From contig JABLTJ010000008.1 in assembly GCA_013166775.1 (NCBI GenBank), forward strand, positions 1 to 64,000: 64,000 nt of DNA. The letters are read 5' to 3'. Shown piece after piece: positions 34,365 through 51,655 of this stretch. This stretch comes from Promethearchaeati archaeon. Lineage in GTDB: Archaea; Asgardarchaeota; Heimdallarchaeia; Heimdallarchaeales; Heimdallarchaeaceae. Numbering within the stretch: the stretch's first letter is position 1; each line of letters starts with the position of its first letter. The notes under the pieces were generated by a model. That model was not told the origin of the DNA. It did not search any database and saw nothing but the letters and a program-made list of their open reading frames with translations. A program made the position numbers and the translations under genes.

Positions 34365-36026
34365 TTATTCGTAGAGTTGTACTAAACGATCGATTACAAT
34401 ATCACTTCTATATTCAGGTAAGAGCATTGGAGCATAGCGTTTTTCTTTCAACCCTAAAGAATCTAGTGTCAAGGTATTTTTTCTAACATGGTCTAAAGAT
34501 AATTTTCCTACTTTGACCTTATTTATCTCTTTAGCCGCTTCTATACCTGCACGACGACCAAAAACATTGATTTCGAGGAGTGAATTACCCATAAGACGAT
34601 TCTTACCGTGAACCCCTCCTGAAACTTCTCCTGCAATCATCAGTCCAGGAATAGAACTATGACACCTTTCATCATGTAAAACTCCACCATTTTGATAATG
34701 GAGTGTTGGATAAATTAGAATTGGATCCACAGTCATATCTATACCAAAGCGTTGGAACATACGGTCCATTGCCGCGAGATTTTTCTTTATGGTTCCTTTC
34801 CCTCTGATTTCCTCAATTAAAGGAGAATCTAACCATACTCCTCTCATACCTGTAGGAGATTCGATGTAATTATCTGTATTATTACAACATCTAATAATTG
34901 CAGAAGCTTCAACGTCTCTAGGTTCCAATGGATAACAAACTTGCTCTCCGTTTCTTCCTAATACTTGAGCTCCTAATCCTCTAACCTTTTCAGTAATTAG
35001 AAGTCCAACGATTTGCTCTGGATATGCTGCTCCAGTAGGATGGAATTGGGTTGATTCAAGATTCCTTAGTTTTGCGTTAGCTCTATAAGCCATTAGTACT
35101 CCATCCATTGTCGCACCATAATGATTTGTTGTTGGAAATCCTGCAACGTGAAGTCTTCCAAATCCTCCGGTTGCCATAATAGTAGTTTTCGCTCTTACAA
35201 CGAAATATTGTTTTGTTTCAAGATGATAAAGAATAGCACCTGCAACTCTACCTGTTTCATCAGTTAACAATTCTATTGCGGGAGTGAACTCTAGTACTGG
35301 GATGTTAAGATTTCTAAATTCATCTCTTACAACTCTAAAGATTTCTAAACCTGTATAATCCTTTGAACTATGCATTCTAAATCTGGATGTACCTCCACCA
35401 GAAAGTACCATGAAATTCCCGTTTTCATCTAAATCATACATTACACCAAGATCTTTGTGCCATTTTAGAATTGTTGGCGCGTCACTAACTAGAGCTTTTG
35501 CTAATTCTGGAATATTATCAAAATGACCACCACCAACAGCATCAAGATAATGAATCAAAGGAGAATCCTCAGGCCTATCTGCAATTTGAATTCCTCCTTG
35601 TGCCATTACTGTGTTAGCATCACCGTGTCTTAGTTTACTACTAACAAGAATGTCTTCAGCAGGTACTCCTGAGTAATTAGCCCATATTGCAGCAGCAGTG
35701 CCAGCACCTCCAGCACCTATAATTAGAACTCCCACATCATAATCGATTTTTGAAAGATCAATTTCATCAGGATTGATAATCGGGTAAGATTCAAGAATAT
35801 TTGCAATTTCTTCAGGAACTATATCACCCTTGTTTTCTCCATATAGAAGAGCCCTTTTTACATCTGTTTTGTAGTCTGGATGGTTTTCTTTGAGAACCTT
35901 GTCACGTTCTTCCATTGTCATGTGAGGAAATGCTTCATTAATACGCTTGCTTCTAGTTTTATTGACATTTTCAATCGATTTTCTCATTTCTTCTGTATAT
36001 CCACCTATTAGTTTCATTTTTTGCAC
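34365..36026 (-). CDS. Fumarate reductase/succinate dehydrogenase-type flavoprotein (TfrA-like, soluble)
   Basis: GAGGAG, ANTVMAQGG, QFHPTG, TEKVRG, PRD, LHYQNGG, HGKNRLMGNSL. Confidence 0.88.
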   Translation of the reverse strand: MQKMKLIGGYTEEMRKSIENVNKTRSKRINEAFPHMTMEERDKVLKENHPDYKTDVKRALLYGENKGDIVPEEIANILESYPIINPDEIDLSKIDYDVGVLIIGAGGAGTAAAIWANYSGVPAEDILVSSKLRHGDANTVMAQGGIQIADRPEDSPLIHYLDAVGGGHFDNIPELAKALVSDAPTILKWHKDLGVMYDLDENGNFMVLSGGGTSRFRMHSSKDYTGLEIFRVVRDEFRNLNIPVLEFTPAIELLTDETGRVAGAILYHLETKQYFVVRAKTTIMATGGFGRLHVAGFPTTNHYGATMDGVLMAYRANAKLRNLESTQFHPTGAAYPEQIVGLLITEKVRGLGAQVLGRNGEQVCYPLEPRDVEASAIIRCCNNTDNYIESPTGMRGVWLDSPLIEEIRGKGTIKKNLAAMDRMFQRFGIDMTVDPILIYPTLHYQNGGVLHDERCHSSIPGLMIAGEVSGGVHGKNRLMGNSLLEINVFGRRAGIEAAKEINKVKVGKLSLDHVRKNTLTLDSLGLKEKRYAPMLLPEYRSDIVIDRLVQLYE

Positions 36027-36030
36027 CTCT

Positions 36031-36747
36031 TCAATTTGTCTCCTTATCTCTATTCTTGTATTTCTCTTCTAGTTCATCTTTTGATAAAGAGAATAATTCT
36101 TTGAATCCATCTTCATAAATTCCATCATCAATTTCCTTAATCCTCTCACCGAGATAAGAAGGTGTTTTCATTATGTATCTTCCATAGAGTCTTCTGACTA
36201 ACTGTGCTACATGGTACTGTGGTATCTCTGCAGGACATCGTATAACACACAGACCGCAGCTTACACAGTCGAAGCTTTCCTCAGCTGCTTTGTCAATTTG
36301 ACCTTGAAGACTGTGTTGAATATAATCCATTACTTTGATATCTTGCGGACATACTTTACTACAAGCATTGCAACTTAGACATCTAGCTACTTCCGGGAAG
36401 TAACGAAGAACTGCATTAGCAGATGCGACTAAATTATTGATATCATATACAGGTCTATCTGCTGGTACGAATGGTAATTGTGTTAGAAACATCCCCTCTT
36501 CAACCATGGTTTGACAAGCAAGTGCTGTGTAGATGTGGAAGTCACCTTCCTTTCTATAAACTGTGGAACATGCTCCACAGAAACCTGCTCTACATCCTGA
36601 ACCTCTTGTAAACTTATAGCCTACAAATTCCATAGCTTTCATTATAGTTAATGTTGCTGGAACCTCATAGACTTGCCCCATTATGTATATCTTAACTTTA
36701 TAATTTTCTTCTTTCTCGTTTTCTGTTATAGTTTTTATTTTAGACAT
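36031..36747 (-). CDS. Fumarate reductase-type iron-sulfur subunit
   Basis: [2Fe-2S] CRAGFCGAC..ACQ; two 4Fe-4S motifs CLSCNACSKVCP and CVSCGLCVIRCP. Confidence 0.85.
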   Translation of the reverse strand: MSKIKTITENEKEENYKVKIYIMGQVYEVPATLTIMKAMEFVGYKFTRGSGCRAGFCGACSTVYRKEGDFHIYTALACQTMVEEGMFLTQLPFVPADRPVYDINNLVASANAVLRYFPEVARCLSCNACSKVCPQDIKVMDYIQHSLQGQIDKAAEESFDCVSCGLCVIRCPAEIPQYHVAQLVRRLYGRYIMKTPSYLGERIKEIDDGIYEDGFKELFSLSKDELEEKYKNRDKETN

Positions 36748-36756
36748 TTTAATCCT

Positions 36757-37656
36757 CTACAACAATTTTAACTCCTCTAATAGAATTCTAGGATCAATTT
36801 CATGATCCTCAAAATGGTTAATCTCCAATGATTCACCAAAGGCTAATGCCATTAGTTGACTGAAATAAAACACAGGTAAAGAATCTTTTCTTCCTGTTTT
36901 TTCATCTATTACTTTTTGTTGCTGATCTATATTATAAGCACATAAAGGACATGCTACTGCAAGTGCATTAGCTCCTCGTACTCTTGCTGCTTCAACAATT
37001 TTCTCTACTTGACCTGCAACTATATCTTCCTGATCCACTATATGATATGATCCACAACAATACTTGAATAATGGAGAGAAAATAGCTTCTGCTCCAAGGC
37101 TTTCCATTAAGTCTTCAAGAACTGTTGGCATTTCTATATCATCAATTTTTGCTTTTTCTGGATGCAATAACATACATCCATAATATGGAGATACTTTTAA
37201 TCCTTCTAACGGTTTAACAACATTACTCCTTATTTGTTCAAAACCAATGCTATCTCTTAACACTTCAAGAAAGTGTTTTACTTCCATGTCAATTGAATAA
37301 GTTTCATTATCTTCTTCTAGTTGAAAGTTTATTGTTTCTAAATCATCAGGATTTTCCTTGACTTCTTCATTAACAATTTTCAAAGTACTATTACACATTG
37401 AACAAAGAGTAACGACATGGTTTGATGTGTCTTTTAGATCCTCCAAATGATTTTTAGAACGAGCTAATACTCTTACTGGAGCAATACGTTTCATCAAATT
37501 ATCTGTGGTCATTGTATGAACAGTCCCACAACAATTCCAGTTTGGGATTTCAACAAGTTCTGAATTTAGTTTTTTACTCACAGCAATAGCTGTTTCCTCA
37601 AATCCTTTCGCGTTAGTTTTCAAGTTACAGCCTGGAAAGTAGGAATATTGTACCAT
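36757..37656 (-). CDS. hdrB: Heterodisulfide reductase subunit B
   Basis: Two CCG domains: YFPGC/WNCCG/CSMC and YYGC/YCCG/ACPLC. Confidence 0.92.
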   Translation of the reverse strand: MVQYSYFPGCNLKTNAKGFEETAIAVSKKLNSELVEIPNWNCCGTVHTMTTDNLMKRIAPVRVLARSKNHLEDLKDTSNHVVTLCSMCNSTLKIVNEEVKENPDDLETINFQLEEDNETYSIDMEVKHFLEVLRDSIGFEQIRSNVVKPLEGLKVSPYYGCMLLHPEKAKIDDIEMPTVLEDLMESLGAEAIFSPLFKYCCGSYHIVDQEDIVAGQVEKIVEAARVRGANALAVACPLCAYNIDQQQKVIDEKTGRKDSLPVFYFSQLMALAFGESLEINHFEDHEIDPRILLEELKLL

Positions 37657-37662
37657 CTATAA

Positions 37663-38073
37663 TCACCCTGTTTTTTTGCGAAAACTTCCAACCAGTGCTA
37701 TGTTGGGAAGCTTATTTAATACATCCTTAGGAATATCAGCTATTTTCATTTTTTCAGGTTCTTCTCTCAAGATATATTCACGTACAGCCTCCATTAGAGC
37801 TGCCACATCTATTTCACGAGGACAACGTATTGTGCAAGTGAGACAACTTGCACATATCCAATGTGTATTTGCTTTGAGAACTTTTTCCTTTTGTCCCATC
37901 TGAATGAAATGAATAAGTTGGTTAACTGTTTTATCCATTTTATTACTGAATGCACATCCCGCAGAACATTTACCACATTGATAGCAGCTATAGATATTCT
38001 GACCTGAAATTTCCTGTATTTTCTCTATGAAGTCTTTTTCTTCTTGTCCGAATTTAATATATTCATAAGACAT
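37663..38073 (-). CDS. hdrC: Heterodisulfide reductase subunit C
   Basis: CYQCGKCSAGC, WICASCLTCTIRCPR. Confidence 0.92.
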   Translation of the reverse strand: MSYEYIKFGQEEKDFIEKIQEISGQNIYSCYQCGKCSAGCAFSNKMDKTVNQLIHFIQMGQKEKVLKANTHWICASCLTCTIRCPREIDVAALMEAVREYILREEPEKMKIADIPKDVLNKLPNIALVGSFRKKTG

Positions 38074-38557
38074 TGGTTTTTATCTCCTCTTTTGTTTTTT
38101 GGAGAATAACATTATACACTTGCTTAACGATTTCATCAAACTTACTTTTTAGTTCTTTTGATAGCTCATCATTAAATTCCATTACATTTATTATTTCTAT
38201 ACCAAGAATAATAATATCTTCTGGTATGTCATCATGTACTTGTTTACAAAATTCTAAAGCTGTGAAGAAATCCATATTATGATAATCTGAAATATGCAAA
38301 GCACTTGCAAAATCATCCGGTTTAAGTTCTACAACAGTTCCTTTTTGATAATTTCTTGTTTGAATTGAATCAACAAGAATAATTTTGTCGTAACCTTTGA
38401 ACAACTCTACAAGTCCAATCCCCCCTACTGAAACATCTCCAATAACTTCAACACTACTTGGAAGAGAAAGTGTCTTTTGAATGAAGTCGACAACTTTGAT
38501 TCCTACCCCATCATCTCCAACTATAGGGTTTCCTAAACCAATCAAAGCTATTTTCAT
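38063..38557 (-). CDS. Hydrogenase maturation protease
   Basis: GLGNPIVGDDGVG, VDSI, H. Confidence 0.92.
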   Translation of the reverse strand: MKIALIGLGNPIVGDDGVGIKVVDFIQKTLSLPSSVEVIGDVSVGGIGLVELFKGYDKIILVDSIQTRNYQKGTVVELKPDDFASALHISDYHNMDFFTALEFCKQVHDDIPEDIIILGIEIINVMEFNDELSKELKSKFDEIVKQVYNVILQKTKEEIKTNVL

Positions 38558-38610: not shown

Positions 38611-40578
38611 TTATTCATCTGCTAAAGCCTTTATTAAGGATAAAATTTGGCTATCTGTATAACCAAGTTGATCTATGGCTCCGTTCAAACAGGTTGCAGC
38701 ACATGTTCCACAACCTTTGCAGACTGCTGCATTTACATCAGCTATTTCGAAAGTATACCCATACCTATCTATTGCTTTCAATTCGATTGCACCATAAGGA
38801 CATGAATCTACACACATGCCACATCCACGACAAAGTACATCATTTACTTTAGCGATAGTTGCTTCAACTTCTAGTTCTTTTTGAGCTAAGATATTAATAG
38901 ACCTAATAGCTGCTCTTCCAGCATGAGATACAACATCAGGAATATCCTTTGGACCAGAAACTGTACCTGCGATATAAACTCCAGATATTGAAGTTTCAAC
39001 AGGTTTAAGCTTAGGATGAGCTTCTTTAACAAATCCTGACATGTCTCTAGAAAGTTTAAGCAGATTGGAAATTTCTTTAGTACCCTCACTTGGTTGAATA
39101 CCAGTTGCCAAAACTACCATATCTGCATGCATTTCTATTGTTTCAGCTGTTAAAGTATTAACTCCCTTGATAAGTATTCGATCTCCATCTTGTAAAACTT
39201 CTGAAACTTTACCTCTGATGAAAATCACATTCTCTTCTTCAGCTGCTCTTTTGTAGAATTCCTCATAATCCTTCCCACCTGTTCTAATATCTATATAGAA
39301 ATTCACTGCTAAACCACTATGCACATGATGTTTGTATTGAAGAGCATGTTTAGTTGCGTACATACAACAGATCTTTGAACAATAAGAGAGATTTTTAGCA
39401 GGATCTCTAGATCCTGCACAGTGAATAAAAATAACTGTTTGAGGTATCCTTCCATCTGAAGGTCTTCTCACCAATCCAGCTGTAGGTCCATTTGCTGCTA
39501 AGATTCGTTCAAACTCTAAACCAGAAATGACATCTTGAATAGTGCCATAGCCATACTCTCCAATATTCTCTATTGGATATGTTTCATATCCTGTTGCAAC
39601 AACTATTGCCCCAAATTCATCTTCAATAATTTCCTCTCTCATGTCAAAATCAATAGCTTCTGGTCCACATACGTCTCTACATTTAGAGCAAATCAATGGT
39701 TCGATTCCTAGACAATTATCAGGATTGATAATGTATGATGCTGGAACTGCTTGAGGATTAGCAATATAGATAGCTTTTCTTGGAGAAAGATTTTCATTAT
39801 ATTCATCATGCACAATTACAGGACATACTGGAACACAATCATCACATAAAGTGCATTTATCTTCAATTACATATCTAGGATTTCTCTTTATTTTTACTTT
39901 GAAATTTCCAATGTAACCATCAACTTGTTTTACTTCACTATTTGCATAGAGTGTGATATTAGGATGACGTCCCACATCAACCATTTTGGGGCTCAAAATA
40001 CACTGGGAACAGTCCAAAGTTGGGAAGGTTTTGTCTAATTGAGCCATCTTTCCTCCAATTGTAGATTTCTTCTCAACAAGAGTAACTTGAAAACCAGAAT
40101 TTGCAATGTCTAGAGCTGCTTGTATTCCAGCTATTCCTCCTCCGATGACAAGAGCTTTTGATATAACTCCAACCTTTTTTCGATCTAGAGGTTCCATTAG
40201 CTCTGATCGCATAACAGCTCCTTTTACTAGAGATACTGCTTTATCTGTTCCTTTATCTTTGTCAGCATGAACCCAAGAACATTGCTCTCGAATGTTTACC
40301 ATTTCCAGACAATATGGGTTTAATCCTTTATCTTCTAGCACGGCACGAAATGTTGGTTCATGCATACTAGGAGAACAAGCTGCTACTACAACTTTATCTA
40401 AACCAAATTCTTCTATATCCTGTCTGATTAATTCTTGTCCTGGATCTGAGCATTTGTATTTGTAGACACGACTTACTGCTACATTTGGTAATAGTTTAAC
40501 ACTATCTGCTACTTCTTCTGTATCTACTGTGTCTGCAATGTTGCTTCCACATTCACATACATATACTCCAATTTTCAT
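38611..40578 (-). CDS. hdrA: Heterodisulfide reductase subunit A (paralog 2)
   Basis: CECGSNI, AACSP, NIREQCSWVH, GGGIAG, KTFPTLDCSQCIL, HCAGSRD, YCSKICC, inserted and C-terminal ferredoxins. Confidence 0.95.
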   Translation of the reverse strand: MKIGVYVCECGSNIADTVDTEEVADSVKLLPNVAVSRVYKYKCSDPGQELIRQDIEEFGLDKVVVAACSPSMHEPTFRAVLEDKGLNPYCLEMVNIREQCSWVHADKDKGTDKAVSLVKGAVMRSELMEPLDRKKVGVISKALVIGGGIAGIQAALDIANSGFQVTLVEKKSTIGGKMAQLDKTFPTLDCSQCILSPKMVDVGRHPNITLYANSEVKQVDGYIGNFKVKIKRNPRYVIEDKCTLCDDCVPVCPVIVHDEYNENLSPRKAIYIANPQAVPASYIINPDNCLGIEPLICSKCRDVCGPEAIDFDMREEIIEDEFGAIVVATGYETYPIENIGEYGYGTIQDVISGLEFERILAANGPTAGLVRRPSDGRIPQTVIFIHCAGSRDPAKNLSYCSKICCMYATKHALQYKHHVHSGLAVNFYIDIRTGGKDYEEFYKRAAEEENVIFIRGKVSEVLQDGDRILIKGVNTLTAETIEMHADMVVLATGIQPSEGTKEISNLLKLSRDMSGFVKEAHPKLKPVETSISGVYIAGTVSGPKDIPDVVSHAGRAAIRSINILAQKELEVEATIAKVNDVLCRGCGMCVDSCPYGAIELKAIDRYGYTFEIADVNAAVCKGCGTCAATCLNGAIDQLGYTDSQILSLIKALADE

Positions 40579-40592: not shown

Positions 40593-41429
40593 CTATATAT
40601 CTCCTTGAAGTTCCTTTAATTGATCATAAGAAAATACTGGGCCATCTTTGCAAACGTAAAGATTACCAATATTACATCTCCCACAAATGCCTATCCCACA
40701 TTTCATCCTCATTTCTAATGTGGTGTAAATTTGCTCCTCCTTGAATCCTAATTTCAGAAGATTCTGTATAACATAATGGATCATTATTGGAGGACCACAA
40801 GTTATTGCAATTGCATTTTCGGGTGCTGGATTAACTTCTAGAAGATTATCAGGAACAAAACCAACATATTTTTCCCAATGTTCTTCGTCAACATCAATTG
40901 AGAGATGCGCTTTAACATCATTTCTTTTTTCTAATTCAACAAATTCATCTTTATAACAAAGGTCTGCACTTGTTCGTGCTCCATAAATAATATCGATATT
41001 TCCATAATCTTCACGATTATCTAGTATGTAATTGATAACTGATCGTAATGGTGCTTGACCGATACCTCCCCCAATGAAAATTAGATTCCTTTTCTTCCAC
41101 CCTTCTACATCAAAGTTGTTACCATAGGGTCCTCTGACTCCGAGTGTATCCCCTTTCTCTAATTTGTGTAAAGCTGAGGTAACTTTACCGTGTTTCATTA
41201 CACTGACTTCAATGTAGTCCTTTTGTGTTGGTGAAGAGGAAATTGCGAACATACATTCTCCTGAACCAAAGAGACTAATCATTACACACTGTCCTGGGAT
41301 GAAACTGAAATTCTTCTTCTTATCATCTTGAAATGCTAGTCTGAAGGTTTTGATAGCTCTGTTCCCTTCAACTTCCTCTTTTACTCCTTCTATAATTGCT
41401 AAAGAAGGTAAATATGGATTCGCTTTCAT
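40593..41429 (-). CDS. flxA: FlxA-like FAD/NAD(P)H-binding [2Fe-2S] subunit (AsrB/HydG family)
   Basis: FIPGQ, RGPYGN, GGGIGQAP, CGPPIM, CGIGICGRC, VCKDGPVF. Confidence 0.82.
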   Translation of the reverse strand: MKANPYLPSLAIIEGVKEEVEGNRAIKTFRLAFQDDKKKNFSFIPGQCVMISLFGSGECMFAISSSPTQKDYIEVSVMKHGKVTSALHKLEKGDTLGVRGPYGNNFDVEGWKKRNLIFIGGGIGQAPLRSVINYILDNREDYGNIDIIYGARTSADLCYKDEFVELEKRNDVKAHLSIDVDEEHWEKYVGFVPDNLLEVNPAPENAIAITCGPPIMIHYVIQNLLKLGFKEEQIYTTLEMRMKCGIGICGRCNIGNLYVCKDGPVFSYDQLKELQGDI

Positions 41430-42451
41430 TCTTTTACCTCCCCTATCTTATTAATAATCTCAATAATATCTATATTTGCAGAACAATATTCTATGCATCG
41501 GCTACAGCCGGTACAACCAAATACTTCAGTGTTTTTTGGAAAATAGTTAAACTTGTGGTACACTCTATTTCGTACTCTATTCATTCTAGCAGGTCGAGGA
41601 TTATGCCCTGATGCATGATGTGTATATTCAGGATACATGCAGGAATCCCATACACGAATACGAGCTCCCTTGTTTAATGTACTCTCATCTTGCATATCAA
41701 AACAATGACATGTTGGGCAGAGATATGTACAGGTTCCACATCCAATACATTTTCTTGCAGATTCATACCAAATTGGATGATCAAACATTCCGTCTAATTT
41801 TTCCACGATTCCAGTAAGTTTCATAGTACGTTTTATTTTTCCTATAGCTTCTCTTTCTACTTTATCTCGAGATTTCTGATCCTCACCAGAAGCTGCATCA
41901 AAAAGAGTTTTGTGATCTTCTAAGAACTTCTTTCCAATTTCAGAGTTCCCTTCAATATAATACTTATAACCTAGATCTGTGAACAAAATATCAACGTATT
42001 CAATTGAAGCAGGACTATCATCAAATGAAGTGCAGAAACATGCAGGTCCTGGATTATTACAGCTCAATCCTATCAGCACACTATTTCTTCTTCTTGCTGA
42101 ATAATATGGATCTTCAAAATCTCCAATGAAAACAGGATCCAGAAGAGCAAAAGCTTTGGCATCGCAAGTTCTGATAGCATAGATTACAATTTTTTCATTT
42201 TCTTCTGGTATTTTTTCAACGTTCCCCTTTTTTCCTGGCGTGAAGTGGAATAATGTTTCAGTTTGCTTGAATATTATAGATTTTGGAGGTACTCTGGTAT
42301 TTACATAAGATGTGTCTATCTCTGATGCTTTTTCTACTTCCTTGAACAATGAAAACCCATTTTCTTTAACAGGAGCAAAGAGCTTATTCTTTGCTATAAT
42401 CTGAGTAAATAGCTCTGGAAGTTTTTCCTTAGAAATTATTGCATTTTCCAT
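41426..42451 (-). CDS. flxB: FlxB-like 4Fe-4S subunit (AsrA/HydB family)
   Basis: RTCD, CFCTS, CIGCGTCTYLCPTCHCF, WDSC, CTGCSRCIEYC. Confidence 0.8.
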   Translation of the reverse strand: MENAIISKEKLPELFTQIIAKNKLFAPVKENGFSLFKEVEKASEIDTSYVNTRVPPKSIIFKQTETLFHFTPGKKGNVEKIPEENEKIVIYAIRTCDAKAFALLDPVFIGDFEDPYYSARRRNSVLIGLSCNNPGPACFCTSFDDSPASIEYVDILFTDLGYKYYIEGNSEIGKKFLEDHKTLFDAASGEDQKSRDKVEREAIGKIKRTMKLTGIVEKLDGMFDHPIWYESARKCIGCGTCTYLCPTCHCFDMQDESTLNKGARIRVWDSCMYPEYTHHASGHNPRPARMNRVRNRVYHKFNYFPKNTEVFGCTGCSRCIEYCSANIDIIEIINKIGEVKE

Positions 42452-43877: not shown

Positions 43878-45347
43878 TTATCTTTTAAGGACTTTGATTA
43901 ATTGTTTTTTATGATCATAAATCTCGACTTTTATCGGCATTTGTCCTGGCAAAGAGTGAGTTGCGCAAGCCAAACAGGGATCATAAGCCCTGAAAGCCAT
44001 CTCGATTTTATTCAGACCATCATCATTGTATTGTCCTTGTTTTACCATTTCCTGTGCTGCTTGTTTCACACTTAAGCAAATAGCTGCATTGTTATTTGTT
44101 GTCGCTACTATGATATTAGCTTTTCTCACTCTTGCATTATCATCGGTCTGATAATGGTGATATAGTGTTCCACGAGGTGCTTCAATTACTCCTACTCCCT
44201 CACCAGTAAATGCTCTTTTATCTACTTGGGTTCTACAATTTTCTGAGTACAATTCTGGTTCATCCGCTATTTCTATCATTCTTTCTCCACAATGGAGAAG
44301 CTCCACTAATCTTGCCCAATTGAATCCAAGTGTATGATGTGCTGGTTTACCTCCTAGTACTTGGAACATTTCTTCAAATGCTTCTTGTGCTAAGGGGGTA
44401 TTTATTTTATCTACAACGTTTAATCTTGCTAAAGAATTTACTCTGTACAATCCACTGTCAGGATTGGCTTCAAAACCTTTCCATCCTATTTTCTTGAGAT
44501 ATGGAAATTTTAAATAGGACCAAGGTTCAACATGTTCTGCTAAATGGTCTAGATAATCTTTTGCTTCATATTTAACAACTTCTTTTCCTTTACTATCAAT
44601 GATTCTAATGGTATCTGATGAATAAAAATCTAATTCATTATCTGGACCTACAACTGATTTGTAATAACTTTCCATCTTATAAGCATCAAGATTAATAAAT
44701 GACATCAAATCTTTGTTCTTGACTACAAGATCATTAAATACTTGCAATCCTAGCTTTCCAAATTCTACTGCTTCTTTACTCATCTGTAGGATTTGTTCAG
44801 CTTGCTCTTTGGTTAGGCTTTTACTTACTCCTCCAGGTATAACAGTTACTGGATGAGTGGCTTTCCCACCAATCATTGCTTGTATTTTCTGAGCATAACC
44901 TCGTATTTTGATCGCTTCTTTAGCAACATCAGGAAATGCTTGAAAGATGCCCAATATATTATGAGTACCTGGTTTAGTTTTTTCACCTAGAACAAAATCT
45001 GGTAGAGCAAATGCGTAAAAATGAAGTATGTGACTGTGAACATTATGTCCAAGAGCAAGCATCTCTCTTAGTAATTTTGCAGTTCTTGGAGGATCAACTC
45101 CATATATCTGATCTGCTGCTTTAGCTGGAGCTAAATGATGAGGGATTGGACATACACCACATATCCTAGGTGTAATCCGTAGTACTTCTTCTATAGGTCT
45201 TCCTAAAACAAATCTTTCAAAACCTCGAAGCTCTACAACTTGATAATAAGCATCTTTTACATTCCCTTCATCATTAAGTACTATAGATATTTTTGCTAGT
45301 CCTTCTAATCTAGTTACAGGGTCAATTGTTACTACTTTGCTACTCAT
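43878..45347 (-). CDS. mvhA: [NiFe]-hydrogenase large subunit, group 3c (Mvh)
   Basis: TRLEG, L1 RICGVCP, EAPRG, L2 RAYDPCLACATH plus C-terminal extension. Confidence 0.93.
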   Translation of the reverse strand: MSSKVVTIDPVTRLEGLAKISIVLNDEGNVKDAYYQVVELRGFERFVLGRPIEEVLRITPRICGVCPIPHHLAPAKAADQIYGVDPPRTAKLLREMLALGHNVHSHILHFYAFALPDFVLGEKTKPGTHNILGIFQAFPDVAKEAIKIRGYAQKIQAMIGGKATHPVTVIPGGVSKSLTKEQAEQILQMSKEAVEFGKLGLQVFNDLVVKNKDLMSFINLDAYKMESYYKSVVGPDNELDFYSSDTIRIIDSKGKEVVKYEAKDYLDHLAEHVEPWSYLKFPYLKKIGWKGFEANPDSGLYRVNSLARLNVVDKINTPLAQEAFEEMFQVLGGKPAHHTLGFNWARLVELLHCGERMIEIADEPELYSENCRTQVDKRAFTGEGVGVIEAPRGTLYHHYQTDDNARVRKANIIVATTNNNAAICLSVKQAAQEMVKQGQYNDDGLNKIEMAFRAYDPCLACATHSLPGQMPIKVEIYDHKKQLIKVLKR

Positions 45348-46348
45348 ATTAACTCCTCCTCTGAATGAAGTTTATAAATTAATGATTTACCATACGTAAA
45401 TCGATAAAAAGTTCCCAAAGGATCTGGGATTTTGTCTACAATTTTATCCAATTCTTCCTCCGTCATTTCTTCCTCTATTTCAACTTCAAGGAGAGATGTT
45501 AATGCTGAAATCATTTTCAGTCCATGATCTTTAACCTTATCTGTTGGCCCCAGACATCCTCTACAACCAACATTCATTTTGGTACACAGACCATCACATC
45601 CAGCTCTTGTTGCAGGCCCTAAACAGAGAATGCCTTGAGGTAGCAGACATAAATCTGGATCCATCTCATCAACCTCTTGAGGTGAAATGAACTCTTTAAA
45701 TGAAATCTTTTCAGGTTTGGTTCTACCACATTCTTCACACAAAGTTTTGGTTCCTGCAATTACTGAACCCTTTGGAGGAAGTTTTCCTGTATTAGCATAT
45801 AGCTTCAGTACTTCAACTACTTGCTCAATCAGTGGTACCATTGGAGGACATCCGGGAACAAAATAATCAACATCGATTACTTCTTCTAAAGCATCAGCAT
45901 TTTCTAATATACCTGGTAATGTTAGTTCAACATCATTTATTTTTACAGATGTAAGTGGTACAGTATTTTCTGGATTATCCATTGAAGGTACATCTTTGTA
46001 CACAAGATCAAACATGTCCTGCTCAAATGGCATATTTGCTAAACTTGGAATACCACCAAAATTAGCACACGCACCAAACGCAACAACAACTTTGGATTTC
46101 TGGCGCAAAATTTTTGCGATTTTTGCATCTTCTGTTGTTCTTATTGCCCCATGATAAATTCCAACATCTACTTCTTTATCTTTCAATTTCTTCAAATCAT
46201 CTAACTTGAAATCCATTGCTGTTGGCCAGAATTTGAATTCAACAAGATCAAAAACCTCTAGTATCTTTTCATTTAAATCAAGGATTGCTACATCGCAACC
46301 TGCACAAGTTGCTCCAAGAGCTATCGCTAGGTTAATCTTCTTCATCAT
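45344..46348 (-). CDS. mvhG: [NiFe]-hydrogenase small subunit (Mvh)
   Basis: CAGC, GACA, PGCPP, LCEEC, CLGPATRAGC, CRGCLG. Confidence 0.92.
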   Translation of the reverse strand: MMKKINLAIALGATCAGCDVAILDLNEKILEVFDLVEFKFWPTAMDFKLDDLKKLKDKEVDVGIYHGAIRTTEDAKIAKILRQKSKVVVAFGACANFGGIPSLANMPFEQDMFDLVYKDVPSMDNPENTVPLTSVKINDVELTLPGILENADALEEVIDVDYFVPGCPPMVPLIEQVVEVLKLYANTGKLPPKGSVIAGTKTLCEECGRTKPEKISFKEFISPQEVDEMDPDLCLLPQGILCLGPATRAGCDGLCTKMNVGCRGCLGPTDKVKDHGLKMISALTSLLEVEIEEEMTEEELDKIVDKIPDPLGTFYRFTYGKSLIYKLHSEEELI

Positions 46349-46794
46349 GAATCTCCTCCTTTACCATTCTTACCATAAGGAGGAAGTTTCTTTAAATCCT
46401 CAACCATTTCTGTTGTAATCTTAGCAAATTTAGCTCCTTCTGTAGCTGATATCCATGTAATCCTAAATCTCTTTGGATTTACTCCAACTTGCTTGAGAAG
46501 TCTTGAAAGTAAAGCCATCCGTCTGAATGTTTTGTAATTCCCTGTTTTATAATGACAATCTCCAAAATGACACCCTGTTATGAGTACTCCATCTGCACCT
46601 TCTAGAAAAGCTTCCACAACATGCTGAGGATCTATTCTACTAGAACAATTAACCATAATAGGTAGAACATTTGTAGGATAATGTAATCTGGAAGTACCTG
46701 CTAAATCTGCACCTTTTCCAGAACACCATCTACATAAGAATAACACAACATTAGGATTTGAATTTAGTTCAGTAATTTGTGTAGTTTTGCTCAT
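46345..46794 (-). CDS. mvhD: MvhD [2Fe-2S] subunit
   Basis: FLCRWC..GADLAG, NCSSRI, GCHFGDCHY, WISATEG. Confidence 0.9.
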   Translation of the reverse strand: MSKTTQITELNSNPNVVLFLCRWCSGKGADLAGTSRLHYPTNVLPIMVNCSSRIDPQHVVEAFLEGADGVLITGCHFGDCHYKTGNYKTFRRMALLSRLLKQVGVNPKRFRITWISATEGAKFAKITTEMVEDLKKLPPYGKNGKGGDS

Positions 46795-46798
46795 TTCA

Positions 46799-48751
46799 TC
46801 ACACCCTCAAAAGTGCCTTTATGCTAGCACTTATACTCTCGTAAGTAGAATTTCTTAATTCAATGCTTCCTGAAGGACAAGCTGCAGCACAACTCCCGCA
46901 TCCTTCACATAATGCTTCATTTACAAGCACTTTGTTCTGATTTTCATCATAGTAGATAGCTCCATATGGGCAAACATGAATGCAAGTATGACAAATTCCA
47001 CAAGTAAGATCATCTATTTCTGCTATGACTGGATCTCTCTCCAAGAAATCAGAAGATAATATAGTTTCAGCTTTAGCAGCTGCTCCTGAAGCTTGAGCAA
47101 CAGCTTCAGGAATATCTTTGGGGCCTGATGCTGTACCTGCTACAAAAACACCTGAGATAACTGTTTCAACCGGCTTTAGTTTTGGATGAGCTTCTTTTAC
47201 GAAACCTTTACTATCACATGAAAGTTTCAGGATATTGGAAATTTCTTGTGTTCCTTCGCTTGGTAGTAATCCTGTTGCTAGAACTACCATATCTGCATGT
47301 AATTCAATTGATTCAGAAGTAAGTGTATTCACTCCCCTAATCAGTACTTTCTCTCCATCTTGTAATAATTCTGATACCTTTCCCCTAATGTAAATTACAT
47401 TTTCTTCTTCAGCAGCTCTTTTGTAGAACTCCTCATAATCCTTACCTGCAGTTCTGACATCAATATAGAAATTTATAGCAACTCCATCATGGACCAGATG
47501 TTTATACTGCATAGCATGTTTTGTTGCGTACATGCAACAAATTTTCGAACAATATGGAAGGTGTTTTGCTGGATCTCGAGAACCTGCACAATGAATAAAA
47601 ACAACTATCTTTGGAATATTCCCATCAGAAGGTCTTCGAATCACACCTTGTGTAGGTCCATTTGCAGAAAGTAATCTCTCAAATTCCAAACCTGAGACAA
47701 CGTTATGAATGTTGCCATACCCATATTCTCCTATTCTTTCATATGGATAAACCGAATAACCTGTTGCAACAACAATCGCTCCAAATTCCTCCTCAATAAA
47801 TTCTGCTTTCATATCAAAATCTATAGCCTTGGGATCACAGACTTCTTTACATTTTGCGCAAATTAGTGGATCGATTCCAAGACATGTACTAGGATCTATA
47901 ATATATGAAGCTGGGACAGCTTGAGGAAATGCTATATAGATTGCCTTTCGTGGAGACAATCCTGCATTATATTCATCATGAACTATAACTGGACAAACAT
48001 GAACACAATCGTCACATATTGTACACTTTTCTTCAATTACGTAACGAGGTTTCTTCTTAATTTTTACCTTGAAGCTTCCAACATAACCATCAACATTTTC
48101 TACTTCGCTGTTAGTTAGTAATTGAATATTTGGATGACGACCTACAGCAACCATTTTTGGCGTTAATATACATTGAGAGCAATCCAAGGTTGGGAATGTT
48201 TCTGCAAGTTGAGCCATTTTTCCTCCGATTGTTGAATCCTTCTCTACTAGTGTAACCTGATATCCTGCATCTGCAATATCTAATGCCGCTTGTATTCCTG
48301 CTATCCCTCCACCAATAACTAGTGCTTTTCTTGTAACAGGAACATTATAGGGTTCCAATGCTTGATTTCTTTTTACCTTTTCAATTGTTGATTCAATTAT
48401 CTTAATTGTTTTTTCTGTAGCTTTTTCTTTGTTTTCATGAACCCAAGAACACTGTTCTCTTATATTAGCCATTTCTGTAAGATATTGATTCAATCCCGCT
48501 TCTTTAGTAACAATTCTGAAAGTGTCCTCATGCATATCTTTACTACAAGCTGCTACAACTACTCGATCTAAATCATGTTTCTTGATTGCTTCCTTGATAA
48601 TAGTTTGACCTGGTTCTGAGCACATATACATACTATCTTCTACATGTACCACATCCTCATAGTCTTTGATGCTCTCTAAGACTTTCTTAATATCAACAGT
48701 GTGAGCAATATTTCTCCCACAGTGACAAACAAATACACCAACTTTACTCAT
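46799..48751 (-). CDS. hdrA: Heterodisulfide reductase subunit A (paralog 1)
   Basis: MSKVGVFVCHCG (ATG 48751), NIREQCSWVH, TFPTLDCSQCIL, YCSKICC. Confidence 0.95.
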   Translation of the reverse strand: MSKVGVFVCHCGRNIAHTVDIKKVLESIKDYEDVVHVEDSMYMCSEPGQTIIKEAIKKHDLDRVVVAACSKDMHEDTFRIVTKEAGLNQYLTEMANIREQCSWVHENKEKATEKTIKIIESTIEKVKRNQALEPYNVPVTRKALVIGGGIAGIQAALDIADAGYQVTLVEKDSTIGGKMAQLAETFPTLDCSQCILTPKMVAVGRHPNIQLLTNSEVENVDGYVGSFKVKIKKKPRYVIEEKCTICDDCVHVCPVIVHDEYNAGLSPRKAIYIAFPQAVPASYIIDPSTCLGIDPLICAKCKEVCDPKAIDFDMKAEFIEEEFGAIVVATGYSVYPYERIGEYGYGNIHNVVSGLEFERLLSANGPTQGVIRRPSDGNIPKIVVFIHCAGSRDPAKHLPYCSKICCMYATKHAMQYKHLVHDGVAINFYIDVRTAGKDYEEFYKRAAEEENVIYIRGKVSELLQDGEKVLIRGVNTLTSESIELHADMVVLATGLLPSEGTQEISNILKLSCDSKGFVKEAHPKLKPVETVISGVFVAGTASGPKDIPEAVAQASGAAAKAETILSSDFLERDPVIAEIDDLTCGICHTCIHVCPYGAIYYDENQNKVLVNEALCEGCGSCAAACPSGSIELRNSTYESISASIKALLRV

Positions 48752-48755
48752 AGTT

Positions 48756-49313
48756 TTATCCTTCTTGCTTGTATTCTTTTCCTTTCTTAAATGCAATAAG
48801 ATTTTTCTCAATGTATCGAGCTTTAATCTTTTGTTTCATAACCGTAACAAGAGCTTCTTCGGATACTATGTCTTTTGCATTAGCACATACATATCCTAAC
48901 ATTGCTATATTAGCAAAGATTTTACTACCAAGAGTTTCTGCAATTTTTGTTGCAGGGATTTTAAAAATCTGTTTAGCTTTATTGGCATTATCATCCAAGT
49001 GTACTAGATTCTCTTCAACAAATAAAATTCCACCTTTCTTAAGTTTAGGAATATATTTGTTATATGCTTCTTCGGATAATACTACAAAATAATCTAGTTC
49101 TGTAGCTTTAGGAAAATCAATCTCTTCAGTATCTATTACGACATCTGCGCTACTAGCACCTCCTCTGCTTTCAGGACCATAGCTTTGTGTCATTACTGAG
49201 TTCTTTCCTTTTTCATACAAAGCAACAGCTTCACCTACTAATCTTCCCATAAGACCTATACCTTGACCCCCAAATCCTGCGAAACGTACTTCTACTCTAG
49301 CCATAATAATCAC
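48756..49313 (-). CDS. korC: 2-oxoacid:ferredoxin oxidoreductase gamma subunit
   Basis: AGFGGQG, TQSYGPESRGG. Confidence 0.88.
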   Translation of the reverse strand: MIIMARVEVRFAGFGGQGIGLMGRLVGEAVALYEKGKNSVMTQSYGPESRGGASSADVVIDTEEIDFPKATELDYFVVLSEEAYNKYIPKLKKGGILFVEENLVHLDDNANKAKQIFKIPATKIAETLGSKIFANIAMLGYVCANAKDIVSEEALVTVMKQKIKARYIEKNLIAFKKGKEYKQEG

Positions 49314-50179
49314 TCCTTACTAACTGAAGCTCTTCCCCTCTTTTGGAGATCTAAAAGATGATCTGTTAATGTCGGTCTACCTTCAATATCTACAAATTTT
49401 CCAACAATCAGTGGTCCATCTTTTTCTATACCAACCTCTCGTGTGTCAGCTCCGTGTTGTAGTTCTGTGTGATCCTTATAGAATTCAAGTATCATCTTTC
49501 CTTCTGCTAATTGATTCCGACGTCCATAGGTTGTGGGGCAACTACCAAGAACCTCAACAAATGAGAATCCTTTCTTAGAAAGAGCTTCTACGAGAGAATC
49601 TTTCATCCTTCTTACATCCAATGCAGTCCACCTTGCAACATATACTGCTCCACAAGAGGTTGCTAAATCAGGTAAGTTAAATGGCTCTTCAACTGCACCA
49701 TAAGGGGCGGTGGTTTGAAATTGACCTATGTAAGAAGTGGGCCCAACTTGACCTCCAGTCATACCATAGTTAAAATTGTTTACACAAATAACAGTTATAT
49801 CTGCATTTCTTCTTGCAGCATGAATGAAATGATTCCCACCTATTGCAAAGAGATCTCCATCTCCTGAAATAACAATTACCTTTCGTTCAGGATCTGTTAT
49901 ACCTAATCCGATTGCAAATGGAATAGCTCTTCCATGTGTTGTATGAAAACTATCAAAGTTTAGATATCCTGATATTCTGCCTGTGCATCCAATTCCAGAT
50001 ACTACTGCAACTTTTTTTGGATCTAATCCTGCTGCAAGTATTGCATCTACTATAACAGTTGTTATCGAACCCAAACTACAACCTGGGCAGAAAATATGTG
50101 GAATCCTTCCTTTTCTCAAATAACCATCCAAAGGGTGTTCATGAGATTCAATTAACTCAATTTTTTCTTCTACCATCAT
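49310..50179 (-). CDS. korB: 2-oxoglutarate-type ferredoxin oxidoreductase beta subunit
   Basis: FCPGC, SGIGC, HTTHGRA, GDGD..IGGNH, NYGMTGGQ. Confidence 0.9.
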   Translation of the reverse strand: MMVEEKIELIESHEHPLDGYLRKGRIPHIFCPGCSLGSITTVIVDAILAAGLDPKKVAVVSGIGCTGRISGYLNFDSFHTTHGRAIPFAIGLGITDPERKVIVISGDGDLFAIGGNHFIHAARRNADITVICVNNFNYGMTGGQVGPTSYIGQFQTTAPYGAVEEPFNLPDLATSCGAVYVARWTALDVRRMKDSLVEALSKKGFSFVEVLGSCPTTYGRRNQLAEGKMILEFYKDHTELQHGADTREVGIEKDGPLIVGKFVDIEGRPTLTDHLLDLQKRGRASVSKE

Positions 50180-51348
50180 TTACCCTTCTCTATTTCTTTT
50201 AAAATCTCTTCAGGAGTATGTATTGCTCCCCCTAGTTTGAAAATTCCTTTAACTTCAGTTTTACCATGAGACGATCTTTCGATTTCTCTAGTTATTTGTC
50301 CATAGTTTATTTCAGGAACAATAATTTTCTTCACTTGATCTGCTAGTAAATCTATTCTCTCATCAGGAAATGGCCAAACAGTTATTAACCTTAACAGACC
50401 TACTTTAATGCCTTTTTTCCTTGCTCTATTAACAGATCCCTTTGCAGCTCTTGCACTTGTTCCAAAGGAAATTAAAGCAATATCTGCATCATCCAATTTA
50501 TATTCTTCAGTTTTGATAATTTTCTTTTTGTTCTTTCGAATTTTGTCATTGATTCTTCTTACATTTTTTTCTTGTGCTTCAGCGGATATTTCAGGATAAC
50601 CTCTCTCATCATGAGTCAAACCTGTCATCATAACTCGATAACCATCACCTGCTATTGCCATCAGTGGTACAAGATCTTTCCCTGCTTTATATGGTAAATA
50701 TTCTTCTGGTGGTACTGTAGGCTTTTTTCTGTTCACAATTTTTATTTTCTCTTTAGCCGGAATTACAAGTTTTTCACTCATATGACCGATTGTTTCATCC
50801 ATAAGAAATGTAACAGGCAACCGATATTGTTCTGAAAAATTAAAAGCTGATATAACTAGATCGAAACTCTCTTGGACAGTACTTGGAGATATTACAATTG
50901 GTTCATAATCTCCATGTGAACCCCATTTTGTTTGCATGACATCTTGTTGTCCAACTAAAGTTGGTAATCCTGTTGAGGGACCACCTCTCTGCACATTCAC
51001 TATTACACAAGGTGTTTCAGTCATCATTCCTAAACCTATATTTTCTACCATTAAAGAATAGCCTGGTCCTGATGTAGCAGTCATACTTTTAGATCCTCCC
51101 CAAGATGCACCAAGAATACTTGCTATTGAGGCAATTTCATCTTCAAACTGGACAAAATGACCATTAATTTGAGGTAATCTTCTTGCCATATGTTCAGCAA
51201 TTTCAGAACTTGGAGTGATTGGATATCCTCCGAAGAACTTACATCCAGCAGCAAGTGAACCTTCTGCTACAGCAATGTTGCCAGTTACGAAATGTTTACC
51301 TGTCATAACTTCAAGCAATTCAGCTTCTTCTTTACTCATCTTCTTCAC
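50176..51348 (-). CDS. korA: 2-oxoglutarate-type ferredoxin oxidoreductase alpha subunit
   Basis: [32 protein letters not shown]. Confidence 0.9.
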
Positions 51349-51655
51349 TTCCTTCTTCCTCTTCAGGAGCTACAACAAAAATCGCAAATTCTGGGCAAAT
51401 CAATTCACAAAAGTGACATTCAGCACAATCATCGAATGTTTTACCATCAATAAGTTTGGGTGGATGATATCCTTTTTCATTAATTTCACCTGATTTCTCA
51501 AGAATCTCTTCAGGGCAGTGAATAATACACCACTCACACTCTTTGCATCTTTCCTTAATTAAGAAAACCTGGGGGGCTTTACTTTTATATTTACTAATGT
51601 CAATAAAAGCAGGCCATTCCGGTTTTTTCCTTCGTCTATCTAGTGACGATTTCAT
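51332..51655 (-). CDS. korD: 2x[4Fe-4S] delta subunit of the 2-oxoacid oxidoreductase
   Basis: [28 protein letters not shown]. Confidence 0.88.

Follow-up and report, generated by a model that had tools for sequence, protein, structure and literature searches.

RESULTS

An anchor-less 18-gene operon in a Heimdallarchaeaceae genome

We analysed a stretch of 64,000 nucleotides (the window; positions 1 to 64,000 of contig JABLTJ010000008.1, assembly GCA_013166775.1) from an archaeon of the Heimdallarchaeaceae, part of a 116-kb contig in an assembly of 3.85 Mb that is 88.7% complete. The system under study is an operon on the minus strand, running from 51655 to 34365, in which genes for a 2-oxoacid:ferredoxin oxidoreductase (Kor) and for Hdr-type proteins stand in line with those of a [NiFe] hydrogenase (Mvh), Flx-like proteins and a FrdBA pair of fumarate reductase type. 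Its 18 co-directional open reading frames (ORFs) follow one another head to tail in the order KorD-KorA-KorB-KorG-HdrA1-MvhD1-MvhG-MvhA-FlxD-FlxC-FlxB-FlxA-like-HdrA2-protease-HdrC-HdrB-FrdB-FrdA, as given by the ORF list with families assigned by Pfam and NCBIfam scans (Table 1).

Table 1. Features of the window, with positions as window coordinates and the evidence for each assignment.
Feature	Position	Strand	Evidence and remarks
TATA-box-like TTTATATA	51701..51708	-	about 49 nt upstream of the korD ATG; candidate archaeal promoter from sequence reading
KorD, 2x[4Fe-4S] delta subunit	51332..51655	-	Fer4 families; top NCBIfam OGOR_delta, below cut-off; 8 Cys, two CxxCxxCxxxC motifs
KorA, 2-oxoacid:ferredoxin oxidoreductase alpha	50176..51348	-	POR_N + PFOR_II; NF006412, 572 bits vs cut-off 411
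KorB, thiamine pyrophosphate-binding beta subunit	49310..50179	-	TPP_enzyme_C; top NCBIfam 2-oxoglutarate ferredoxin oxidoreductase beta, below cut-off
KorG, gamma subunit	48756..49313	-	POR family; NF006323, 182 bits
HdrA1, bifurcating-type HdrA	46799..48751	-	NF040770 HdrA2 model, 824 bits over positions 1-641
MvhD1, [2Fe-2S] adaptor	46345..46794	-	FlpD family, 167 bits; 5 Cys
MvhG, [NiFe] hydrogenase small subunit	45344..46348	-	Oxidored_q6; top NCBIfam VhuG
MvhA, [NiFe] hydrogenase large subunit (group 3c-like)	43878..45347	-	NiFeSe_Hases; top NCBIfam VhuA, 414 bits
MvhD2/FlxD-like adaptor	43438..43863	-	FlpD family, 200 bits; 54% identical to MvhD1
FlxC-like Fe-S protein	42461..43444	-	FrhB_FdhB_C + Fer4
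FlxB-like Fe-S protein (sulfhydrogenase beta/AsrA-like)	41426..42451	-	Fer4_22; ShyB 225 bits, AsrA 155 bits, both below cut-off
FlxA-like FAD/NAD(P)H-binding [2Fe-2S] flavoprotein	40593..41429	-	FAD_binding_6 + NAD_binding_1 + DHODB_Fe-S_bind; top NCBIfam sulfhydrogenase gamma, AsrB
HdrA2, second bifurcating-type HdrA	38611..40578	-	residues 2-650 align with 5-647 of 654 of PDB 5ODC HdrA, 696 bits
Hydrogenase maturation endopeptidase (HycI/HybD-like)	38063..38557	-	HycI; TIGR00072, 98 bits vs cut-off 47
HdrC-like, 2x[4Fe-4S], 136 aa	37663..38073	-	Fer4_8/17; top NCBIfam QmoC (N-terminal part) and HdrC
HdrB-like, two complete CCG motifs	36757..37656	-	CCG x2; HdrB TIGR03288 146 bits, SdhE (MFR anchor) 131 bits, both below cut-off
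FrdB-like Fe-S subunit, [2Fe-2S] + two CxxCxxCxxxCP motifs, without CCG domain	36031..36747	-	Fer2 + Fer4
FrdA-like flavoprotein P0001, 553 aa	34365..36026	-	FAD_binding_2 (PF00890), 191 bits, residues 100-483 only
T-rich tract after the frdA stop	34331..34360	-	candidate archaeal terminator from sequence reading
Class I fumarate hydratase beta	12985-13581	+	Fumerase_C, 146 bits; outside the operon, pathway neighbour
Class I fumarate hydratase alpha	13586-14464	+	Fumerase, 274 bits; outside the operon, pathway neighbour

Overlaps of 4 to 17 nt join the genes at eight of the 17 junctions; the other nine are gaps, 4-14 nt wide in eight cases and 53 nt in one. GGAGG-like motifs lie ahead of most of the genes. 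The TTTATATA box and the T-rich tract fit a single archaeal transcription unit, as far as such signals can be read from the sequence. No membrane anchor or transmembrane segment was found among the operon products by hydrophobicity profile; peaks of 1.6 or more were confined to the FAD-binding motifs of HdrA2 and FrdA and to short stretches of KorB (residue 34) and MvhG (residue 5). A preliminary description of this DNA had claimed a contiguous, often overlapping 18-gene operon without a membrane anchor, with fumarase genes ~16-21 kb away. Every ORF was recovered where it had been placed, with its family upheld, and class I fumarase genes do lie ~20-21 kb from the FrdA end. The gene order given there was right overall, except that the Flx-like genes run D-C-B-A and not C-D-B-A, and the TTG at 48811 proposed as the start of HdrA1 gives way to a more likely ATG at 48751 (MSKVGVFVCHCG).

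A widespread flavoprotein family with an intact dicarboxylate site

The last gene of the operon encodes P0001, database copies of which begin at an ATG three codons in (550 aa), the nearest of them (94% identity) coming from Candidatus Heimdallarchaeota/Heimdallarchaeaceae. P0001 is a member of the FAD_binding_2 fumarate reductase/succinate dehydrogenase superfamily with an intact dicarboxylate site. Alignment to solved SdhA and NadB places the dicarboxylate and catalytic residues at H329 (HPT), T345-E346 (TE), R370 (PRD), H443 (HY..GG) and R477 (NRL). None of them varies within its own family, and conservation is 90% or more in an alignment of 106 superfamily sequences. The model built from that alignment reached a predicted local distance difference test (pLDDT) score of 93.7 and replaced an earlier one from 10 sequences, discarded at pLDDT 62.5. 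In a fold search covering residues 76-537 of the model, the best matches were the soluble Fcc3 fumarate reductases of Shewanella (Z 42.4, root-mean-square deviation 2.0 A over 390 residues), followed by E. coli FrdA (Z 39.7, 430 residues); urocanate reductase and 3-ketosteroid dehydrogenase were also strong matches. The flavocytochrome c3 fumarate reductases of Shewanella are soluble, one-way enzymes.

P0001 scores far below the curated cut-offs for TfrA (NF004900, 283 vs 718 bits), sdhA_frdA (TIGR01812, 232 vs 567) and nadB (TIGR00551, 240 vs 453); Pfam gave no match to Succ_DH_flav_C (PF02910), and the NCBIfam models reach only to about position 418. The family lacks the C-terminal helical domain and conserves an N-terminal extension of ~95 aa together with a short C-terminal tail. 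Asn138, in the motif DANTVMAQGG, stands where M. smegmatis SdhA has the His for covalent linkage of flavin adenine dinucleotide (FAD), and it does not vary within the P0001 family; non-covalent FAD marks enzymes that reduce fumarate but oxidise succinate poorly. The P0001 group is a distinct, tight and unnamed family. An identity with complex II-type SdhA/FrdA was set aside, the covalent-FAD His and the C-terminal domain being absent and no membrane anchor being present in the operon; NadB was rejected on its bit score and on a Gly at the position of the NadB-specific Glu (E121 of E. coli NadB, 1CHU).

Some relatives of P0001 deserve mention. P0123 (727 aa), a distant one at 44% identity, carries ~215 extra N-terminal residues, possibly a fused partner subunit, and the orthologue in the nearest genome (G029:C62:4425-6083; 94% identical) has one internal TAA, which may be a sequencing error or mark a pseudogene. 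The third full-length FAD_binding_2 protein of the window's genome, which is 3-ketosteroid-dehydrogenase-like, adjoins a glutaryl-CoA/acryloyl-CoA-dehydrogenase-like gene on contig C29 (L009, 5647-8619).

At least 597 species genomes, archaeal and bacterial, contain a member of the P0001 family. Full-length relatives with 55-65% identity come from Asgard archaea, Theionarchaea, Methanofastidiosa, Thermoplasmata, Bathyarchaeia and Desulfurococcales as well as from WOR-3, Acetothermia, Thermotogota, Chloroflexota, Spirochaetota, Aminicenantes and others, and in a library clustered at 50% identity a single representative covers nearly the whole family. Orthologues are present in 27 of the 30 genomes of the window's own family and, patchily, in 64 of 399 Asgard genomes.

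Conserved linkage of FrdBA with Hdr and Kor genes

The 18 proteins were compared by tblastn with 80 loci around family members, and the 39 loci with at least 9 kb upstream and 4 kb downstream were counted. The FrdB gene lies directly upstream of the flavoprotein gene in all 39; HdrB and HdrC were found in 34, hdrCB adjoining frdBA, and HdrA likewise in 34; MvhD was present in 33, KorA in 24, MvhA in 18 and FlxA in 6, and MvhA and FlxA never occurred together (0/39). The position of Kor varies: it is upstream in Asgard archaea, downstream in Thermoplasmata, Thermotogota and Chloroflexota, and between hdrCB and hdrA in some bacteria. Since gene order varies by lineage, the linkage has been maintained through rearrangement and not merely inherited. 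Gene tables of independent assemblies gave the same pattern, and with these genes linked again and again, in dozens of genomes across many phyla, the gene arrangement is far beyond chance. The guess of the preliminary description that related clusters exist in anaerobic bacteria was borne out. Kor, HdrA/MvhD, one of Mvh or Flx, HdrCB and FrdBA are kept together across archaea and bacteria in several gene orders. On an Asgardarchaeia contig with the same cluster (L007, 2624-4591), no gene is called at the hdrA site, where an in-frame stop (e.g., selenocysteine) or a broken gene is possible.

Predicted docking of FrdB onto HdrB and HdrC

The cysteines expected to hold the clusters of the output module are invariant in 32 sequences from many phyla: 8/8 in HdrC (two CxxCxxCxxxC motifs), 10/10 in HdrB and 12/12 in FrdB. 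The nearest solved proteins to HdrB are methanogen HdrB. The top match of HdrC to the QmoC N-terminus prompted an AprAB/Qmo-like reading, which was dropped because the flavoprotein matches no Apr model and retains the dicarboxylate residues.

HdrC, HdrB and FrdB were submitted together to structure prediction as three chains, with a 32-row alignment each and three controls. FrdB docked onto HdrC and HdrB with an ipSAE of 0.87, the best of the three controls reaching 0.00; at least 96% of contacts were common to all three runs, and the pLDDT of the partners was 79 or more. Among 80 solved complexes 58 attain the ipSAE mark, and among 110 mismatched pairs 2 do, a calibration that is only rough here, with our own alignments and three chains. 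The predicted interface joins residues 109-131 and 140-150 of FrdB to residues 9-14 and 39-44 of HdrB and to the C-terminal tail of HdrC, thereby pairing the first [4Fe-4S] motif of FrdB (C123/C126/C129) with the first CCG motif of HdrB (C10, C42, C43). Sequence comparison found no solved complex of HdrB with an FrdB-like partner; therefore, the score probably does not reflect a similar structure already known to the predictor. The prediction supports a FrdB that would be wired directly to HdrB/HdrC.

Two input modules, each beside an HdrA paralogue

HdrA1 and HdrA2 are both full-length, of bifurcating type and 66% identical to each other. The scores of HdrA, HdrB and HdrC all lie below the methanogen equivalog cut-offs of NCBIfam. 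The reference for HdrA2 in Table 1, PDB 5ODC, is the solved MvhAGD-HdrABC complex. In MvhA, both Ni-Fe motifs are present (RICGVCPIPH, residue 61; DPCLACATH, residue 456), and behind the second comes a tail of 25 aa for cleavage by the neighbouring protease during maturation. The FlxABCD assignment is one by architecture and gene order, the model libraries used containing no curated Flx model. A second Hdr/hydrogenase cluster is present in the genome (C107:40000-55000, L092, 6903-14881 and beyond), with HdrC-like, HdrB, NuoF-like, NuoG/Fer2-Fer4, MvhD, MvhG and MvhA genes; it also encodes an N-terminal HdrA fragment fused to a NuoE-like [2Fe-2S] domain, an unusual Hdr-NuoEF-Mvh combination.

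Among the Heimdallarchaeaceae versions of the cluster that were found, only the window has both complete inputs, Mvh and Flx. H2-only versions occur in Ca. Heimdallarchaeum aukensis (L015) and L016, and Flx-only versions in AB_125 (L012), L013, L014, L017, L098 and L099; L096 and L097 (the latter on the same contig as L010) have two HdrA and Mvh without FlxDCBA, and L094 has HdrA2 only with a leftover protease gene. In a quick maximum-likelihood tree with support by the Shimodaira-Hasegawa-like approximate likelihood ratio test (SH-aLRT), all Heimdall HdrA form one clade (100), made of a Mvh-linked HdrA1 group (100) and a Flx-linked HdrA2 group (100); HdrA1 of the window belongs to the former and its HdrA2 to the latter. 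Where Flx has gone from a genome, its HdrA2 still branches within the Flx-linked group. The simplest reading of this tree would be an old HdrA duplication, with each paralogue tied to one input, followed by differential loss, the window keeping the full set. The merged Mvh and Flx form with two HdrA paralogues in an Asgard archaeon is new here and occurs in none of the 39 other long loci. In L094 (G027:C220, 4126-4617), the protease gene lies between hdrA2 and hdrC though the hydrogenase and Flx genes are absent, and it looks like a relic of module loss.

Kor and the genomic context of the pathway

All four subunits of a Kor-type enzyme (alpha, beta, gamma, delta) are encoded at the head of the operon. 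The models named for 2-oxoglutarate are the best or near-best matches, below their cut-offs (NF007206, 414 vs 579 bits, for KorA; NF007207, 235 vs 364; OGOR_delta, 47 vs 125), and 2-oxoglutarate is a putative substrate.

SucCD is encoded on the same contig, ~31 kb beyond korD, with both subunits above cut-off. Contig C1 (L090, C1:100000-119999, minus strand 10079-18492) has an operon in which an IDH-like gene is joined by aconitase-family genes (large, small and fused) and by an ATP-citrate-lyase (ACL)-like pair, the latter consisting of a SucC-like protein (435 aa) and a fused SucD-like/citryl-CoA-lyase protein (717 aa). The only Citrate_synt-family match in the genome lies in this ACL-like set. 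Judged by these sequences, the ACL-aconitase-IDH operon would make up, with SucCD, Kor, fumarase and fumarate reductase, most of a reductive tricarboxylic acid (TCA) cycle. Neither MCR_alpha nor ComA nor DsrC (PF04358) was found in the 88.7%-complete genome.

DISCUSSION

A proposed soluble bifurcating fumarate reductase coupled to Kor

In our proposal, the products of the operon are a soluble fumarate reductase system that bifurcates electrons at a flavin and a Kor that uses the low-potential product of that system, a reading to which we would give a probability of roughly 55%. Electrons from H2 would pass from MvhAG via MvhD1 to HdrA1, and those from NAD(P)H from FlxABC-like proteins via MvhD2/FlxD to HdrA2. 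The HdrA flavin would split each electron pair, sending the high-potential electron through HdrC, the two non-cubane clusters of HdrB and the [4Fe-4S]/[2Fe-2S] chain of FrdB to the non-covalent FAD of FrdA, where fumarate would be reduced to succinate, and the low-potential electron to ferredoxin. SucCD would then activate succinate, and KorDABG would carboxylate succinyl-CoA to 2-oxoglutarate with the reduced ferredoxin. The stoichiometry would be closed, each fumarate reduced yielding one two-electron ferredoxin, which is the need of one Kor turnover. In effect, this would be the methanogen arrangement of thiol:fumarate reductase (Tfr) and Mvh-Hdr minus the coenzyme M/coenzyme B (CoM/CoB) thiol shuttle; Tfr reportedly couples CoM-SH and CoB-SH to fumarate.

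The standard potentials are -414 mV for H+/H2, -320 mV for NAD+/NADH, +33 mV for fumarate/succinate and about -500 mV for ferredoxin. Calculated from them, the reaction of 2 H2 with fumarate and oxidised ferredoxin yields ~-70 kJ/mol, and that with 2 NADH ~-33 kJ/mol. The non-covalent FAD and the fold match to one-way fumarate reductases favour the fumarate-reducing direction. The preliminary description had proposed such a bifurcating system feeding Kor and had suggested looking at neighbourhood conservation, complex prediction and genome content, all of which turned out in its favour: the neighbourhood is kept, FrdB is predicted to dock well above the best control, and SucCD is present, with no CoM/MCR/DsrC markers found in the incomplete genome. 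The proposal is supported in part. What stands of it is the gene unit, its linkage, the catalytic residues, the fold and the predicted docking; the activities, their direction, the Kor substrate, the direct wiring and the joint use of both inputs are what we infer from these.

Several observations weigh against this proposal. No purified member of the P0001 flavoprotein family or complex was found in the literature searched, and the docking score expresses the confidence of the predictor and is no measurement. HdrB retains both complete CCG motifs, as in thiol-disulfide-reducing HdrB, and so leaves room for a thiol route. KorA passes the generic 2-oxoacid model only, and the genome holds seven alpha-type genes of 2-oxoacid:ferredoxin oxidoreductases (OFOR), so that 2-oxoglutarate is a presumed and not an established substrate. 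A canonical SdhA (588 aa; TIGR01812, 733 bits) is encoded with SdhB on contig C102, next to a class II fumarase/aspartase; therefore, P0001 is not the sole candidate fumarate/succinate enzyme. The organism, moreover, looks like a peptide fermenter, for which oxidative flow would be natural, and no Ldh_1_C-type malate dehydrogenase was found in its 88.7%-complete genome. Finally, the ACL-like gene and the cluster are not strictly co-distributed in Asgard genomes. The gene is present in 25 of the 30 genomes of the window's family and absent from the two complete Ca. Heimdallarchaeum genomes, which carry the cluster with P0001, and a sister family (f5) has ACL in 10/22 genomes and P0001 in 0/22; strict co-distribution thus fails. 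Given this uneven distribution, the conserved unit is the fumarate-to-2-oxoglutarate segment and not the full cycle.

Alternative readings of the operon

The room left by the CCG motifs is best weighed as a thiol shuttle, in which HdrB would reduce a low-molecular-weight or protein disulfide and FrdBA, with or without HdrB, would re-oxidise the thiol using fumarate. The full motifs are invariant in the 32 HdrB sequences, methanogen Tfr plus Mvh-Hdr is reported to work in this way with CoM-SH and CoB-SH (Heim et al. 1998), and such a shuttle is one of the two options of Rubin-Blum et al. 2019 (PMC6315080). We nevertheless consider it unlikely: searches of the 88.7%-complete genome gave no ComA, MCR or DsrC; FrdB, unlike TfrB, carries no CCG domain and is predicted to contact HdrB/HdrC directly, at the first CCG motif; and hdrCB adjoins frdBA in 34/39 loci. 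Running the whole system backward, as the preliminary description had offered for peptide fermentation, would have Kor oxidise 2-oxoglutarate in amino-acid catabolism while the complex makes H2 or NAD(P)H by confurcating the electrons of succinate and reduced ferredoxin. Here too the stoichiometry fits, the seven OFOR alpha genes are typical of peptide fermenters, and in Ca. Heimdallarchaeum aukensis the next gene of note after the cluster encodes a glutamate dehydrogenase. By calculation, this direction is thermodynamically poor, costing ~+70 kJ/mol with H2 as product, which requires H2 below ~0.1 Pa, or ~+33 kJ/mol with NADH; it also fits badly with the replacement of the covalent-FAD His by an invariant Asn, since non-covalent FAD is generally taken to suit fumarate reduction, and with top fold matches that are one-way fumarate reductases, and the canonical SdhAB encoded elsewhere could oxidise succinate. 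We regard the reverse direction as quite unlikely.

The genes could also be neighbours only, Mvh-HdrA1, Flx-HdrA2, HdrCB-FrdBA and Kor being separate co-regulated enzymes that share ferredoxin, with no bifurcation onto fumarate. Adjacency of genes by itself is no proof of a complex, and close relatives have lost one or both input modules yet retain HdrA2-HdrCB-FrdBA. Against this, which we hold to be very unlikely, HdrA/MvhD is linked to HdrCB-FrdBA in 33-34 of the 39 loci, across phyla and rearrangements, FrdB is predicted to dock onto HdrB/C, and we know of no role of HdrA without an HdrBC-type or equivalent acceptor module. Highly improbable, in our view, is a flavoprotein acting on another enoate, C4/C5 dicarboxylate or aspartate beside a Kor that is not specific for 2-oxoglutarate. 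P0001 does fall below every curated equivalog cut-off (TfrA, SdhA/FrdA, NadB), its termini are remodelled, urocanate reductase and 3-ketosteroid dehydrogenase match its fold strongly, and Kor passes a generic model only; its carboxylate-binding residues are conserved (both His, both Arg and the Thr-Glu pair), the NadB-specific Glu is absent, and the conserved partnership with Kor-type enzymes fits the fumarate-succinate-2-oxoglutarate segment.

Comparison with known systems

For the Flx form, the core idea of bifurcation to a fumarate reductase that works with Kor has been in print since 2019. Rubin-Blum et al. 2019 (PMC6315080, including Text S1 Note 3) described korABCD and tfrAB interspersed with flxABCD-hdrABC in a RIFOXY gammaproteobacterial metagenome-assembled genome from an aquifer, in Thioflavicoccus mobilis and in the symbionts of tubeworms (Ca. 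Endoriftia), and they hypothesised bifurcation directly to fumarate reductase and to ferredoxin/2-oxoglutarate:ferredoxin oxidoreductase (OGOR). Mitchell et al. 2024 (PMC11636981) found co-expression along the Endoriftia cluster, supporting one operon, and still listed Hdr-Flx among the complexes of unknown function and direction. The published cluster shares with the window Kor, Flx, Hdr and an anchor-less fumarate-reductase pair interspersed on one strand, and two of our bacterial loci (L029, L039) show its layout, with kor between hdrCB and hdrA; this layout also suggests that the symbiont tfrA is orthologous to P0001. The copy in the window differs in being archaeal (Heimdallarchaeaceae) and in adding a [NiFe] hydrogenase input, two HdrA paralogues and two MvhD adaptors. 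The published cluster also includes aclAB, acn, idh and mdh. In the window's genome, genes resembling those for ACL, aconitase and IDH lie on another contig (C1).

MvhAGD-HdrABC of hydrogenotrophic methanogens (PDB 5ODC, 8RVU, 7BKB, 9SFI) resembles the window in HdrA from end to end, in the two CCG motifs of HdrB and in MvhD, MvhG and MvhA with their metal-binding motifs; in the window, the FrdBA module stands in the place of the heterodisulfide and HdrC is short (136 aa), and the genome gave no marker of MCR or CoM biosynthesis. TfrAB of Methanothermobacter (Heim et al. 1998) is likewise soluble, with an Fe-S subunit of [2Fe-2S] and two [4Fe-4S] motifs, CCG chemistry joined to a fumarate-reducing flavoprotein and a fumarate-to-2-oxoglutarate branch with Kor. 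TfrB combines the FrdB and CCG parts in one polypeptide, whereas the window has separate FrdB and HdrB plus HdrC; the TfrB model NF004898 gave 39.8 bits with FrdB and 27.2 bits with HdrB, against a cut-off of 385. P0001 matches the TfrA model at positions 7-418 of 546 only, without the C-terminal domain and with the N-terminal extension of its own family. FlxABCD-HdrABC of Desulfovibrio vulgaris (Ramos et al. 2015) shares a FlxA-like FAD/NAD(P) protein, two Fe-S proteins, an MvhD-like FlxD and HdrA; in the window, the order is D-C-B-A, the acceptor module is HdrCB-FrdBA, no alcohol dehydrogenase gene lies in the cluster and no DsrC was found in the genome.

As described in PMC5947623, FrdABEF of Syntrophobacter fumaroxidans (Sfum_4092-4095) is a cytoplasmic, anchor-less enzyme of four subunits, more abundant with fumarate as acceptor and never purified, and it is not reported there beside HdrA, hydrogenase or Kor. 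Papers on Culexarchaeia, WOR-3, Oman Acetothermia, anaerobic digestion and Ace Lake mention parts of the cluster and not the linkage, and neither a biochemical characterisation nor an Asgard-specific description of the cluster was found in the literature searched.

Implications of a possible acceptor in place of the heterodisulfide

Many non-methanogens carry MvhADG-HdrABC or Flx-Hdr, and the cluster type described here offers a concrete candidate acceptor replacing the heterodisulfide, i.e., fumarate via a soluble FrdAB that would be wired to HdrBC. If true, this would show how the cost of carboxylating succinyl-CoA with reduced ferredoxin is met in anaerobes. The P0001 family is very widespread, yet without a purified member in the literature searched. 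The Asgard example, with both alternative inputs side by side and an own HdrA paralogue for each, would be a natural system in which to study the matching of input modules to HdrA, and it is relevant to the question of a reductive TCA cycle in some Heimdallarchaeia. A bolder and, in our estimation, unlikely extension would place an HdrA1-HdrA2 heterodimeric core in a single supercomplex that takes in H2 and NAD(P)H and has one HdrCB-FrdBA output besides ferredoxin; with the ACL-aconitase-IDH operon, SucCD, fumarase and Kor, it would endow this genus of Heimdallarchaeaceae with a hydrogen-driven, bifurcation-assisted reductive TCA cycle, and archaea closely related to eukaryotes would then fix CO2 autotrophically or mixotrophically.

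Neighbouring genes and other observations

At the locus of the canonical SdhAB (C102:86000-96745, L008, 4540-8450, minus strand), no recognisable membrane anchor gene lies nearby, and the class II fumarase/aspartase that follows SdhAB is split into two ORFs (151 and 312 aa), possibly by a frameshift or an assembly error. In Ca. Heimdallarchaeum aukensis (L001, 12681-14033), the glutamate dehydrogenase gene lies ~1 kb downstream of frdA, which fits a 2-oxoglutarate/glutamate link.

A tRNA scan of the window found no tRNA gene. A small GTPase gene of the Arf/Ras superfamily (51890-52540, plus strand), of the Asgard "eukaryotic signature" type, is divergent from the operon and adjoins the korD promoter region. 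A few kilobases beyond frdA lies a gene for a major facilitator superfamily (MFS) transporter (30419-31795, plus strand), which could encode a dicarboxylate carrier; an MFS_1 gene is also found downstream of frdA in a related Heimdall-type contig (L003, 12928-14268).

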